Shown here: piece by piece, positions 3,941 through 9,970 of the stretch
Numbering within the stretch: the stretch's first letter is position 1
How the letters are laid out: the number at the start of each line of letters is the position of its first letter
NCBI GenBank assembly: GCA_963749915.1
Contig: CAVVOP010000008.1
Coordinates: 544,001-608,000 of the forward strand
Direction: 5' to 3'
Length of the DNA: 64,000 nt
Origin: an uncultured cyanobacterium
GTDB lineage: Bacteria; Cyanobacteriota; Cyanobacteriia; Cyanobacteriales; Cyanobacteriaceae
Translations under genes and position numbers: made by a program
The notes under the pieces: model-generated
The model's input: only the letters and a program-made list of their open reading frames with translations
The model's database searches: none
What the model was told of the DNA's origin: nothing

Positions 3941-4804
3941 TTAACGGAATAATAACACAGGAATCCTCGTACTGCGTAAAAGTTGAATAGTTGTACTACC
4001 AATAATTAAGTGGCGGATACGACTATGACCGTAAGCACCCATAATCAAGAGGTTGATGTTATTTTCGGTAATATAATTAGAGATCACTTTTTCTGATTCA
4101 CCTTGTAATAAGGAAAATTGGGGATTAAAACCAGCATTTTGCAGTTGAGATACTGCTTGATTTAACTTTTCTTGAGAAGCATTTTCTGGTCCATTTTTAG
4201 CCACTGTTAAAATATGCAATTCTAGATCTTTAACTAGAGGAATTTCCGTTAAAAATTGTAAGATTTTTTGTCCTGTAGCACTACCATCATAAGCGATTAA
4301 AACTTTATCAATAGGCTTAAATTCACGGGGAATGACGAAACAGGGTTTATGACTACTGCGCACAATTCGCTCTAAATTTGTCCCTAAATGAGTTGAGGCA
4401 AAATCGGCATTTTCACCCCTTTTTCCTAAAATAATTAAATCAGCATTACTTTCAAATTCATGAAAACAATCCACCAAAAAACCTATTTTCGAGCTTAATT
4501 TAACTTCTTCTACTCCTTGAGCTTTTAACATTTTGGAAGCAGTTTGTAAGATTAATTTTGCTTTTTTATGGTTAAGTTTAGCCTTTTCATGTTCTAAATC
4601 TACTAATTTTTGCAAAAGTTCATCAGATGCACCTAAGCCGATACTACCGCTCAAATTTCCTGTAGAAATTGCCCGTTGAGTACGAATATCAGTAACGCAT
4701 AAAACATTGATTTTCCCATCTAATTTTTTGGCTATCCATGCCGCATATTTATAGATATTTTCGGCGTAAGTTGAGCCATCAGTACAAAGTAAAATATTTT
4801 TCAT
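3941..4804 (-). CDS. Universal stress protein (two USP domains)
   Basis: ILLCTDGS, DLIILGKRG, IAYDGS and MGAYGHSRIR..IIGSTT motifs. Confidence 0.9.
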   Translation of the reverse strand: MKNILLCTDGSTYAENIYKYAAWIAKKLDGKINVLCVTDIRTQRAISTGNLSGSIGLGASDELLQKLVDLEHEKAKLNHKKAKLILQTASKMLKAQGVEEVKLSSKIGFLVDCFHEFESNADLIILGKRGENADFASTHLGTNLERIVRSSHKPCFVIPREFKPIDKVLIAYDGSATGQKILQFLTEIPLVKDLELHILTVAKNGPENASQEKLNQAVSQLQNAGFNPQFSLLQGESEKVISNYITENNINLLIMGAYGHSRIRHLIIGSTTIQLLRSTRIPVLLFR

Positions 4805-4835: not shown

Positions 4836-6320
4836 TTAATGCTCCTGAGTCTGATTCAAAGCATCAGGATCCTTGTGAATTGATAATTTATCTAGTAAGG
4901 TAGCACTAGCTTCATTTACCCCTACTAACTCTACATCAGCACCATTCCGGCGGAATTTGAGAACAACTTTGTCCATGGCGGCTACAGCACCCTGATCCCA
5001 AAGATGAGCCTGGGTTAAGTCAATGGTGATCAGATCAACCATTTCCTGAAAATCAAAAGCCTCTAAAAATTCATCTACGGACACAAAGAAAATTTGACCA
5101 GCCACGTTATAGGTGCGATGAGTGCCATCACTACTGAGAATTTTATCCACAAATACCAGTTTGGCAATTTGACGGGAAAAAAAGACGGTACTCATCACAA
5201 TCCCTGTAACTACGCCAATCGCTAAGTTATGAGTCAACACGGTAATAAATACCGTCGTAATCATTACTGCGGTTTCGCTACGGGGAGTACGGGCAATGTT
5301 TTTGAGGGAAACCCAGCTAAATGTCCCTATGGATACCATAATCATTACCGCCACTAAGGCCCCCATCGGCATTTGTTTAACCCAATGTCCTAATACTAAA
5401 ATGAAGAAAAGAAGGAAAACCCCCGATGTTAAGGTTGAAAGTCTTCCTCTTCCTCCAGATTGAATATTAATTACCGATTGTCCAATCATTGCACACCCGG
5501 CCATCCCTCCAAAAAATCCAGTTACGATATTAGCAATACCTTGACCTTTTGCTTCTTGGTTTTTATTGCTGGGAGTATCGGTTAGTTCGTCCACTAAAGA
5601 AGCTGTAAGTAAAGACTCCAACAAACCGACTATGGCTAAAGTTAGGGCAGGTAGGGAAATAATCTGTAATGTCTCCAAATTCAAGGGAACTTTGGGTAGG
5701 CTAAAAATCGGGAAAGTATTTGGTAGTTCGCCCATATCCCCCACGGTGGGGACTTCTAATTTAAAGGCTATCGTTGCTATGGTCATCACGACGATGGCTA
5801 CTAAGGGAGAAGGTACGGCTTGAGTAAATCGGGGCAATATATAGATAATTGCCAAAGATACTGCGGTGATCAGATATACTGTTGGCTGTACGTTTATCAA
5901 TTGTGGCAATTGAGCCATGAAAATTAAAATTGCCAAGGCATTGACAAAGCCAATCATCACCGCACGGGGTACATATTTCATTTGGCGTCCTAATTTCAAA
6001 ACACCAAAGATGATTTGCAACACTCCTGTCAAAATCGTCGCTGCCAATAGATACTGTAAACCATGATCTTTGACCAAATGCACTAACACCAGTGCCATTG
6101 CACCTGTAGCCGCTGAAATTAAGCCCGTTCTTCCCCCCACAAATGCCGTTACTACAGCGATAATAAAAGAGGCATATAGTCCAACTTTAGGATCAACTCC
6201 GGCAATTATCGAAAAGGCGATAGCCTCGGGAATCAAGGCTAAAGCAACCACTGCACCGGCCAAAATATCTGCTTTCACATTGGAAAACCATTCCCTGTTT
6301 AGAGTAGTTGTATTTAACAT
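4836..6320 (-). CDS. SulP/SLC26-family inorganic anion transporter with STAS domain
   Basis: [30 protein letters not shown] and [12 protein letters not shown] motifs, then a C-terminal STAS-like region. Confidence 0.92.
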
Positions 6321-6345
6321 TTCTCGAAATAAATTAACTAACTGG

Positions 6346-6381
6346 AAAAACCGACAAAAATATTCTGAATGTATTTACCGG
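6346..6381 (-). terminator. Putative attenuator hairpin plus U5 tract in the sulP leader
   Basis: Minus strand reads ccggtaaatacattc-a-gaatatttttgtcgg-ttttt, an imperfect stem (G-U pairs, two mismatches) followed by 5 U. Confidence 0.4.
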
Positions 6382-6394
6382 AAAAAGACAAAAA

Positions 6395-6430
6395 TTACAT
6401 TGACCTTGGCGGGGATAAAACTCTAATCAT
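6395..6430 (-). CDS. Putative 11-aa leader peptide [11 protein letters not shown] upstream of sulP
   Basis: Minus strand gagcaggtaatcaca-ATG ATT AGA GTT TTA TCC CCG CCA AGG TCA ATG TAA, with an SD-like AGGT 7 nt upstream. It ends 74 nt before the sulP ATG. Confidence 0.55.
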
Positions 6431-6498
6431 TGTGATTACCTGCTCGAACTTAATAATAGGCGTAATGCTAGTGGTCTGTCAAAGCGGTTAAAAAAAGC

Positions 6499-7130
6499 AT
6501 GATGTGGAAATTATCTTGCGTTCTCGATGGGGGTTTTTCTTTGCCTGAAATCATCAATCTTTGTGAACGTCAAAATGTTAAATATGTGTTTGGATTTAGT
6601 AGTAATGAGGTGTTGACACGAAAAATAGATTATCTTTTAGATCAAGCAAGATTACAATCTGTTCGGACTCAAGAAAAAGCTCGTTTATTTGGGGATGTTT
6701 ATTATCGAGCTAAAAGTTGGGCAAAACCTCGTCGAATTGTGATGAAAGTGGAATGGTTAGAGAAGGGCGAGAATCCCCGATTTTTAGTGACTAATATTGA
6801 GATGAAACCTCAAGAACTTTATGATAATTTTTATGTACAAAGAGATGCAACTTCCGAACAAAGAATAAAGAAACTAAAGCTAGGAATGAATGCAGATCGT
6901 CTCAGTTGTCATCAATTTATGGTGAATCACTTTCGTTGATTTCTATGTCAAGCAGCCTATATTTTAATGTTAGAAATTCGTCATAGTGCAGAGGAAACAA
7001 GGTTAGAAAATGCACAAGTTTCAAGAATAAGAGAAACTCTAATAAAAATCGGGGCAAAAGTGACAGTTTCAGGGAGAAGAATTTTGGTAGAATTAGCAAA
7101 TTATTGTCCTTTTAAGGAGGAAATAAAAAT
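6499..7130 (+). mobile_element. IS1380-family transposase remnant (5'-truncated, broken near 6937)
   Basis: DGGF, SW.KPRRIV.K.E, NPRFLVTN, EQRIKKLK...DRLSCH.F..N.FR and IRETLIKIGAKV motifs spread over two ORFs. Confidence 0.85.
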
Positions 7131-7249
7131 CATAATACCGGTTTGCTCCGCTCTAAGGACTCCTAAAAAAATCTGCCCCCTAAATGCCTGAATGGTAGGT
7201 AGTACAACGACTCCGGAATCTTAGACAACGTCGAACTCGTAAACTAATG

Positions 7250-7576
7250 TTAAACCGATGATCGTGTTGCTTCATGCTCAGAATGGAACGGAGAAATTGA
7301 TGCAAGGGCTTCACTCTCTTCTCTCATAACTTGATACAGTTCCCATGTCTGCTGTAGGTTCAACCAAAACTCTGAGCTGTTACCAAAAAACGCAGAGAGT
7401 CGAAGTGCAGTGCTCGGCGTCATACCACGCTTTTTATTGATAAGCTCGTTCACACGCTGATAGGGAACATGAATTGCTTCGGCAAGCTGTCGTTGTGAAA
7501 CACCCAAAGGCTGAAGGAATTCCTTCAGCAAAATCTCTCCAGGATGTGAGGGAGCACGGTTTTTCGGGATAATCAT
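7250..7576 (-). CDS. higA: HigA-family addiction-module antitoxin (HTH)
   Basis: HPGEILLKEFL, SQRQLA, RGMTPSTALRL..FFG.S.EFWLNLQ. Confidence 0.92.
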   Translation of the reverse strand: MIIPKNRAPSHPGEILLKEFLQPLGVSQRQLAEAIHVPYQRVNELINKKRGMTPSTALRLSAFFGNSSEFWLNLQQTWELYQVMREESEALASISPFHSEHEATRSSV

Positions 7577-7623
7577 CAAAATGCCCTCTCGTGATAGTCA
7601 ACAATATCAATATCTTCGGTTTC
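7576..7623 (-). pseudogene. 3' stump of a HigB-type toxin gene
   Basis: Frame reads ETEDIDIVDYHERAF*, matching the HigB C-terminal (E/D)IVDYH motif. Its TGA overlaps the higA ATG (TGATG). Confidence 0.7.
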
Positions 7624-8253
7624 TTTTTGCAGTTGTCTCATGGGTTAGAAGATTAACTGCCAGATGACGAACCACCGCTAAATTCTCGGCACTATAACCA
7701 AGGCATCCTTTCAGGCTGTCTTCTTGAAAACCCACGTCCAGAACCCAATGAAGTTGATTTTCAATGCCCCAGTGGCTACGAACTGATTGAGCAAAACGTT
7801 GAGCATCACTTTCAATACTCATTAAATAGTATCGCTGCTCTACCGTTATTTTCCCCTTAACTCGACGTTCGGATTCTACCATCCCAATACTTTGTAACCC
7901 TTTCCTAAGGCACTGCGTAAGGTTTTTCCATCAATAGCAATTACTTGTCCTTTCGTTATGTTCGTCACTGATTCAATCCAAGAGAGAAAACATTGCTGTA
8001 ATTCATTTGGTTTTAAACGGGCAAATAGTCTCATCAATGTATCGTGAGAAGGTATTCCCTGAGGTAACTCTAAAAATGTTTCTAACCATTCTTTTTTGCC
8101 ATGGCCATAATTTTCAATTTCGACCCAGTTATTGGCACCACAAATCACGGCACAAATGGTGATTATTACTATATCAAATTGACTATTTATTTTCTCTCAT
8201 CAACCAATTTCTTTGTTTTGCTAAATTGTTAAGTTTTGTGTGCGTTTGCCCTG
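7624..8253 (-). mobile_element. ISAs1-family element remnant, internally deleted
   Basis: ICAVICGANNWVEIE, GIPSHDT, IAIDGKTLR and RSHWGIENQLHWVLDV.F.ED motifs. A terminal-repeat-like cagggcaaacgca lies at 8241-8253. Confidence 0.88.
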
Positions 8254-8500
8254 CAAGAAATGACTTTAAGGCTAAAAGCTTTTGCCTGCAAGGGTTTCAG
8301 TATCTTGTTTGTCATCGCTTTGCGACGGTGGAGATTGAGATTGAAGATGAGGAAAGCACGATCGCCAGGATGATCGAGAGCCAACGGGGACAAAGAAATC
8401 GTATGCTGGTAATGATCAGTTATTTTATTTACCTAATAATTTGGCATAATAAATTAGTATCGGGTTAAGTTTCCGTGTCTGCCACCATTTTGTTAAACTC

Positions 8501-9970
8501 ATGTCCAAGAACTATTCAATTAAACCAGTTGGCGAAGTTTTGAAACAAGCAGGTTTAGTTTCAGCCGAACAGGTCGAGATAGCACTAAAAACTCAGCAAG
8601 AACAGGGAAACAGGCGACTGGGGGAAATTTTGGTCTTGCAGGGATGGCTCAAACAAGAAACAGCCGACTTTTTTGCCGAGGAGTGGTGGAGTTTACTCAA
8701 TCAGAAGCAGAAAAAACCCTTGGGGTACTATTTCGAAAAAGCCGGACTGCTGGATGCAGCTCAAATCAGAGACATTCTCAACGAACAAAAACAAAAAGCC
8801 ATCCTATTTGGGGAGTTAGCCATCAAGAAGGGGTGGATTACACCGGTTACTCTCAACTTTTTTTTACAGCATCTTTACTCAGCTCTCAGTTTGGCTGACG
8901 AACCTGAGCAACTAAACACTTTACGACCTTTTGACAAGCTCAGACTAAAATTACTAGAATTAGAAGGAAAAGCCACCTACCCTCATTTAGTGCTCAAAGA
9001 GGTGTTGTCATGGACAGGTGGTCACCCTTTTTTCACCCAAAAGCTTTGTCAACTTATCTGTGACTCTAACAAGATTATCCCCTCTGGGATGGAGGCAGAT
9101 GCAGTTGCACAGCTAGTGCAAGCCCGATTGGTTAATAATTGGCAAAGCCAAGAGGGACATGAATTGTTGAAAGAGATTAGCACTCGCCTTCTCGGAAATA
9201 AGCAGTGTCATCCCATCTTGTTGCTAAGGCTATATAAGGAAATTTTACAACAAGGAGAAGTGAGGGCTAATCAACGTGAGAAGGAAGATGTGTTACTGAA
9301 TTTGGGATTGGTAGTCAAGCATCAAAACAAGTTAAGGGTATCTAACCGCATTTACCAATCTGTTTTTGATATGAGGTGGGTGGATCAGCAATTAGCGACT
9401 TTTCAAAAGAGAGAAAAAAAGGAGATTGAGATCACGAAGAAAGCTAAACCCTCCCGAATTTCTTCCCCAAACACAAATGAGCCTCTCACTCAGTTGGGTT
9501 CTGTCATAACACTGTTGGGGCTTTTAATTGTTCCCCCTCTATTAATAAGGCTCAATTCTGGGTCTGTGCCTCCAAAACAAAGCACCAGTCCAACTCTAGC
9601 CTTACAGTCCTCTAGCCCTTCTTCCCTTGCTACTCTCTGCCAAAGTGAAATCCCATCGGATGTGGTAGATCAAGATAATTTGAGAACGAGACTTGAAAAT
9701 GAAAACCAAAAGCTGAAGGAAAGTTTTCCGCCAACTTGTAAATCTTTATTATATAAACTCTGGGGAATGAGTGCCCCAACATTAGGTAAATATAATCAAG
9801 TGATTGAGGCGGTTAGTAATTTGTGTCGAATTCCAGACAAGGCTGATAATTTTAATCAAGCTAAGTTCTGGATAAATTATTGGTATGATTCTCAAGATTG
9901 GGGCCAGAAGGTCAAAGCTTACTTATTGCTCACCCCTGATTGTCCAGCCGCAGAGGATCATTTTCCATAA
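8501..9970 (+). CDS. Membrane protein: tandem MshEN-like N-terminal repeats, AAA_35-type C-terminal helical region, TM helix and Cys-containing C-terminal domain
   Basis: Four (R/P)LGxxLxxxG(L/W)-like repeats, WTGGHPFFTQKLC...LRVSNRIYQSVF, and hydrophobic LGSVITLLGLLIVPPLLI. Confidence 0.65.
   Translation: MSKNYSIKPVGEVLKQAGLVSAEQVEIALKTQQEQGNRRLGEILVLQGWLKQETADFFAEEWWSLLNQKQKKPLGYYFEKAGLLDAAQIRDILNEQKQKAILFGELAIKKGWITPVTLNFFLQHLYSALSLADEPEQLNTLRPFDKLRLKLLELEGKATYPHLVLKEVLSWTGGHPFFTQKLCQLICDSNKIIPSGMEADAVAQLVQARLVNNWQSQEGHELLKEISTRLLGNKQCHPILLLRLYKEILQQGEVRANQREKEDVLLNLGLVVKHQNKLRVSNRIYQSVFDMRWVDQQLATFQKREKKEIEITKKAKPSRISSPNTNEPLTQLGSVITLLGLLIVPPLLIRLNSGSVPPKQSTSPTLALQSSSPSSLATLCQSEIPSDVVDQDNLRTRLENENQKLKESFPPTCKSLLYKLWGMSAPTLGKYNQVIEAVSNLCRIPDKADNFNQAKFWINYWYDSQDWGQKVKAYLLLTPDCPAAEDHFP

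Follow-up and report, generated by a model that had tools for sequence, protein, structure and literature searches.

The MgtL leader of mgtA is an open reading frame (ORF) with proline codons that lies ahead of an ion transporter gene. MgtP of Salmonella mgtCBR has the same arrangement (PMC3641672), and in this respect both resemble the family of leader ORFs that we describe here ahead of a subfamily of SulP anion transporter genes. In MgtP and MgtL, however, several internal proline codons are coupled to defined stem-loops, whereas the present family has one terminal proline pair at a spacing of 88 to 567 nt from the gene, and no conserved switch was found in it. A second group of leader peptides, TnaC, PepNL/NanCL, and MsrDL, is described in the accessible portions of PMC12407103 and PMC11890864 as arresting the ribosome at the leader's own stop codon. 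These are also short ORFs before a regulated gene, and a pause at termination is what we predict here, but they need specific upstream residues or a ligand, whereas the family conserves only x-Pro-Pro-stop and length. The copy at the locus studied here departs further from the TnaC type of arrest in having no stop codon behind its Pro-Pro. By these analogies, the family would work like the termination-arrest leaders and the Pro-codon transporter leaders while apparently being a member of neither.

The RAPP/RGPP arrest peptides likewise carry Pro-Pro near the C terminus of an upstream ORF, but there the pair follows Arg-Ala or Arg-Gly, often together with a localization signal, whereas the family and the present locus have no arginine at that place; in the accessible part of the source, these peptides are reported to be absent from many Cyanobacteriota, and the SulP entries among the rows listed of its supplement (2 of 15) are annotated proteins of more than 100 residues (PMC12992588). 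The structured RNA sul1 of Rfam (RF03058) is an orphan riboswitch candidate for which, in the accessible text, sulfate binding was not seen (PMC5737381). Our search found no paper on the substrate or the control of the SulP subfamily concerned, and no description of the leader family was found in the full-text literature, with most subscription journals and several supplements being outside reach. The leader family is widespread and, apparently, undescribed.

Results

The window, i.e., the whole stretch of 64,000 nucleotides that was analyzed, comes from an uncultured cyanobacterium and carries a sulP-usp pair preceded by a micro-ORF (Table 1). The original prediction was that of a leader-peptide attenuator, and the ORF, the AGGT, the stem-loop, the five U's, and the spacings (13 nt from the stop codon to the stem-loop and 25 nt from the U tract to the sulP ATG) are all found where it had placed them. 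Judging from its consensus match, the predicted promoter would start transcription about 16 nt ahead of the micro-ORF. The native leader extends no further than 163 nt, up to the broken end of the IS1380 remnant; beyond this point, a second genomic copy of the element and an environmental contig each run on with different sequence. A sediment contig spans positions 6000 to 6407 with one difference and no gap. This argues weakly against an assembly error, as the contig stops at the second Pro codon and its independence is uncertain.

Table 1. Features of the sulP-usp leader region in the window
Feature	Position	Strand	Remarks
usp	3941..4804	-	287-aa protein with two Usp stretches
sulP	4836..6320	-	494 aa; anion transporter of the SulP family with a STAS domain; does not reach the curated cut-offs for BicA or DauA
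Weak A/U-rich hairpin and five U's	6346..6381	-	Stem-loop 6381-6351, five T's 6350-6346, 25 nt before sulP ATG
Micro-ORF	6430-6395	-	ATG at 6430, 11 sense codons, stop ending at 6395; direct reading of the sequence
Ser-Pro-Pro codons of micro-ORF	6407..6415	-	Next is an Arg codon; the family has a stop there
Weak SD-like AGGT	6441-6438	-	7 nt ahead of micro-ORF ATG
Sigma-70-like promoter match	6482-6453	-	TTGACA-18-TATTAT, 11/12 consensus match only; adjoins IS breakpoint
Truncated, frameshifted IS1380-family transposase remnant	6484..7191	+	Broken end at 6484

The sulP-usp pair borders a patch of mobile-element debris, where a lone higA antitoxin gene is located (window positions 7250 to 8413) beside repeated transposase-like fragments that have copies elsewhere in the genome. 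Elsewhere in the window, a gene at positions 629 to 1705 overlaps an ORF at 1635 to 1919, and the pair resembles a single gene that a frameshift has split, either a real break or an assembly error. The product of the split gene (629 to 1919) would be a putative CO2-uptake-type protein.

The SulP subfamily of the window is present in 90 of 401 genomes of its class, and 1,778 of 72,556 plasmid records match it at an E value of 1e-100. No relative of more than 86% identity was found in 401 genomes of the order or among the 80 best metagenome loci. The closest lineages are three with 83 to 86% identity, beside which the window's SulP is placed in the tree with a support of only 0.58, and all three carry the canonical x-Pro-Pro-stop motif described below.

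A total of 245 loci holding the 5' end of this SulP subfamily were collected; the window's two loci and two with less than 150 nt upstream were dropped, and the remaining 241 gave 186 dissimilar leaders, of which 161 had at least 100 nt of intergenic DNA. In these 161 dereplicated leaders, [C/S/T/Y]-Pro-Pro-stop occurred in 38 on the coding strand and in 2 on the other, compared to a mean of 1.46 and a maximum of 4 in 100 shuffles. Pro-Pro was the dipeptide most enriched before a stop codon, with a z score of 15.4 versus 4.0 for the next. Ile and Asn were admitted afterwards, giving 41 of 161 leaders with the motif and 120 without, counts that include the 23 orthologs in which the motif was first spotted and related loci that are not independent. 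The distance from motif to gene ranges from 88 to 567 nt. Otherwise the peptides are unalike, and the motif is scattered over the SulP tree, occurring in cyanobacteria and in alpha-, beta-, and gammaproteobacterial records. It was absent from the leaders of 25 other SulP paralogs (22 of them of at least 100 nt), and it precedes a second SulP gene or gene fragment inserted ahead of sulP in two of the seven regions examined (L294 and L295). For the family, enrichment, a reading-frame signal, specificity for the SulP subfamily, and a position at the front of the operon are shown. In the one annotated record examined that has a family micro-ORF, the micro-ORF carries no annotation.

Of the conserved leader family first envisaged, the part that stood is the presence of a Pro-Pro micro-ORF ahead of orthologous sulP(-usp) genes; RVL(S/T), an SD-like site, and a terminator fell away as its parts. 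Of the 161 orthologous leaders, 2 contain RVL(S/T) versus 3.6 expected, and an SD-like site was found in only 3 of 36 family ORFs. Leaderless starts were considered and rejected, with a -10-like hexamer at a fitting distance in only 3 of 36 ORFs. No wider regulon was detected in the window's genome, where none of 315 pattern hits was at once intergenic, ATG started, and followed by a gene on the same strand. A less strict screen picked out 1 of 2,187 upstream regions.

Several further observations concern the genes themselves. Another SulP paralog often accompanies this sulP, either in tandem or in divergent orientation (L295, L294, L081, and G045:C97); of the paralog upstream in L294 only a fragment is left, which the leader still precedes. 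On a Sinorhizobium plasmid (L260), sulP is flanked by two annotated NYN-domain genes (485 to 1087 and 4262 to 4500). TTG seems to be the start codon of most orthologous sulP genes (31 of the 41 that have the motif and 68 of the 120 that lack it), and the TTG starts of the motif-bearing group usually stand behind a strong SD, while the window's sulP has an ATG and no such SD.

An Rfam scan gave no match between positions 5500 and 7500 at E values up to 5, and sul1, with which a scan had been suggested, matched neither the window nor its genome. An Rfam scan of 40 related loci returned only tRNAs and one sul1 hit, with no sul1 in the x-Pro-Pro-stop loci among them. The same sul1 search was positive in 17 of the 151 genomes from one alphaproteobacterial order, and among the 16 of 19 sul1 loci listed, sul1 stood some 120 to 300 nt upstream of the same SulP subfamily in 15, with no common reading frame and no [CSTY]PP-stop in the 16. 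The idea that sul1 is a hidden ORF was rejected: three Roseibium-type loci read M..WLFRPPIRR, and the frame and start are lost in the others. From these comparisons, sul1 is a separate alphaproteobacterial element, so that two different leader elements would serve this sulP in different lineages. In the sul1 loci (L322 to L340), a GGUGG tract and a CCGCC loop could pair, like CC(A/G)CC and GGUGG in x-Pro-Pro-stop leaders, which may be a coincidence.

The window's micro-ORF matches the family in part. It lies on the same strand as, and upstream of, a gene of this SulP subfamily, its Ser codon is 95 nt from the sulP start and so within the family range, and it has an in-frame ATG and a [C/S/T/Y]-Pro-Pro. 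The residues Arg-Ser-Met, however, stand between Pro-Pro and the stop codon, which thus comes three codons late, and the family's codon signature is missing, with a score of -5.8 bits in frame versus a family minimum of 10.0. Eroded copies are known from other leaders, such as CPPS-stop (L119 and L129), SPL-stop (L238), and CPP running on into other sequence (L136), and these retain 5 to 11 bits of the nucleotide signature. When the leader DNA of the window was aligned to other leaders, no convincing homology emerged (best z score of 4.1, heavily gapped, and -1 to 2.7 for sister loci). [CSTY]PP followed by one to three extra codons occurs in 3 of the 120 motif-less leaders versus 2.9 expected, and for lack of enrichment a read-on variant cannot be regarded as a class. 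At its Pro pair the micro-ORF reads R-V-L-S-P-P, with the Arg five residues from the last Pro instead of two residues before Pro-Pro as in the RAPP/RxPP peptides, which speaks against the RxPP-like stall originally suggested.

The most likely reading is that the window's micro-ORF is an eroded relative of the family that has kept the ATG and Ser-Pro-Pro and lost the adjacent stop and the family codons. Weighing the sequence evidence by judgment, we lean towards common descent of this ORF with the family, while we consider it unlikely that the ORF is functional in any form. With the adjacent stop and the family codons gone, the termination pause of this copy has probably been lost or weakened.

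It is less likely, although worth serious attention, that the micro-ORF is a chance look-alike and that the true leader, once located at a greater distance upstream, was lost when the IS1380 element was truncated at 6484. The three closest lineages hold the canonical motif 187 to 298 nt upstream of the gene, past the position of the window's breakpoint (-163); only 10 of the 41 motifs lie within 163 nt, and leaders of 100 to 200 nt have a motif in just 2 of 37 cases. No canonical motif was found beyond the IS up to position 8600, where the sole PP-stop is inside the IS itself, and all three codons of the window's motif are atypical. On the other hand, members of the window's own family have short versions of the motif (MYPP, MNYPP, and MQYPP; 4 to 5 codons) at 138 to 191 nt, and the ORF is uncommon by chance. 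Among 3,000 dinucleotide shuffles of the 163-nt leader, 15 contained an ATG-started ORF with [CSTY]PP, 3 contained one with a stop within three codons as well, and 55 contained any M..PP. In the last 163 nt of the genome's 2,187 upstream regions, ATG-started [CSTY]PP was found in 10, the form with a stop within three codons in 1, presumably the window's own, and M..PP with a stop within five codons in 15. Overall, this places the chance at 0.1 to 2% (0.1 to 0.5% for the tighter patterns and 1.8% for the loosest), for patterns that were picked after the sequence had been seen. An ORF with a chance of 0.1 to 0.5% nevertheless stands ahead of the only gene with motif-bearing orthologs.

Still less probable is a working variant, in which the pause would have shifted from termination to an EF-P-dependent elongation pause at Ser-Pro-Pro-Arg that still sets the output of sulP-usp, as in the switch first proposed but with no terminator involved. 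The ATG and its weak SD lie directly behind a strong promoter match, and the Pro-Pro-Arg codons are low-use ones in this genome (11%, 18%, and 10% of their residues). An internal SPP stalls ribosomes of EF-P-less Bacillus subtilis and triggers cleavage by Rae1, according to the accessible part of PMC12407103, and a gene of the Rae1/YacP nuclease family is present in the window's genome. [CSTY]PPR is found in 6 of the 120 motif-less leaders versus 2.4 expected, a number as high as that occurring in 1 of 100 shuffles, but among the cases inspected, L221 is the reverse strand of a gene and L136 is a disrupted leader, and there is no conserved read-on variant. In Escherichia coli, stalling is weak when Ser precedes a run of prolines, and Arg does not belong to the residues with a strong effect at the position that follows (PMC4176338); the weak stalling after Ser also argues against a stall at S-P-P as such, as originally proposed.

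Nor did folding reveal a switch in the window's leader. The hairpin, with a loop of 15 nt and an energy of -3.1 to -3.6 kcal/mol, is no more than expected by chance; no intrinsic terminator was called in the leader, which as a whole folds worse than its own shuffles (z score of +1.25). At about -3.5 kcal/mol, with no terminator call and a leader no better folded than shuffles, the hairpin and U tract lose the role of terminator or switch first assigned to them. Neither an intrinsic terminator nor Rho-dependent termination, as in an mgtP/mgtL-type attenuator, was found in the window's leader. A modeled ribosome footprint shifts the cost of opening the window's sulP start by only -0.2 kcal/mol; in the 41 family leaders, the median change is 0.0 kcal/mol, with 3 below -1 and 5 above +1. 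Sequestration of the sulP start that is relieved by a stalled ribosome was not seen in this equilibrium model, either in the family leaders or in the window.

In the family, the motif behaves like a coding element. The stop codons of the 41 motifs are TAA in 27, TAG in 9, and TGA in 5, and three codons are used at each Pro. An in-frame ATG is present in 37 of the 41 leaders; within 66 nt of the motif, 45 ATGs are in frame versus 7 and 6 in the other frames, and upstream stop codons occur in frame in 3 of 41 leaders versus 19 and 24 out of frame. The ORF usually has 14 to 19 codons, with a modal peptide length of 18 residues (17 of 36).

Codon choice and pairing show some further structure. The first Pro is never CCT (0 of 41), although CCT makes up 41% of the genome's Pro codons, the second is never CCA, and Cys in the motif is TGT in 17 cases and TGC in none. 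Codon-pair effects on pausing (PMC8129111) were rejected as the source of this bias, since CCC is frequent at the first position of the pair. With downstream sequence, the Pro codons have a mean pairing of 0.47 versus 0.33 in shuffles, and the value exceeds 0.5 in 20 of 41 leaders, while 20 shuffles reached a maximum of 21. In a subgroup of 11 sequences, the Pro codons are able to pair with either of two downstream tracts, and covariation there was not above that of shuffles. A cyanobacterial subgroup (L048, L086, L104, L133, L172, L173, L238, and L244) has a near-invariant RNA stretch some 15 to 35 nt past the leader stop that can pair with the motif instead of forming a local hairpin and is a candidate switch. 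That the conserved element is mainly RNA, a CC(A/C)CC(U/C) pairing or protein-binding site with the peptide secondary, could draw on the lopsided codon choice, on the two alternative pairings of the invariant downstream element, and on L238, which retains the RNA element although Pro has become Leu, but is very improbable since an RNA-only element does not predict the use of all three stops with no near-stop codon, the in-frame ATG excess and stop avoidance, or the fixed length.

Discussion

Our preferred explanation for the family as a coding element is that its leader would be translated and that the ribosome would pause at the stop right behind [C/S/T/Y]-Pro-Pro, the only residues that are conserved. 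In the accessible text of the preprint 10.1101/751305, Pro-Pro-stop is avoided at bacterial C termini and is among the strongest termination stalls of E. coli, where release was not accelerated by EF-P. A ribosome pause at the leader stop is the simplest reading of the motif. The pause probably controls the transporter gene downstream. TnaC acts through Rho, which would not be the output in the window's genome as no Rho was found over the cut-off there. Candidates for the output are RNA refolding and Rae1-type cleavage, and B. subtilis Rae1 is described in PMC12407103 as cutting 12 nt upstream of a ribosome that has stalled at a stop codon or at SPP. In the window, sulP-usp would be driven mainly by the promoter beside the IS breakpoint. 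As for this explanation as a whole, with termination-pausing leaders in the family, an eroded copy in the window, and mainly promoter-driven expression of sulP-usp, we regard the case for and against it as about evenly balanced.

Peptide release is pH dependent, and for this reason our guess at the input is pH or anion stress. Only tentatively do we propose the broader possibility of a minimal leader class that crosses phyla, in which Pro-Pro-stop alone would make peptide release the sensor, e.g., of pH or anion load, and would do so Rho-free in cyanobacteria. If true, this would be a further leader that senses termination, in bacteria that lack Rho. The x-Pro-Pro-stop family and sul1 may answer the same signal since both occupy the same regulatory slot.

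The present analysis contributes the cyanobacterial branch and the controls, as well as the fixed peptide length, the comparison with sul1, and a copy that departs from the family type. For the mechanism of the family, this copy in the window makes a poor model. If the proposal is true, either the family or sul1 could reveal the substrate or role of the SulP-Usp module, which is found on many plasmids, and a peptide-encoded element of twelve nucleotides would be a direct handle on the condition that induces it; the ligand of sul1 may be the same.
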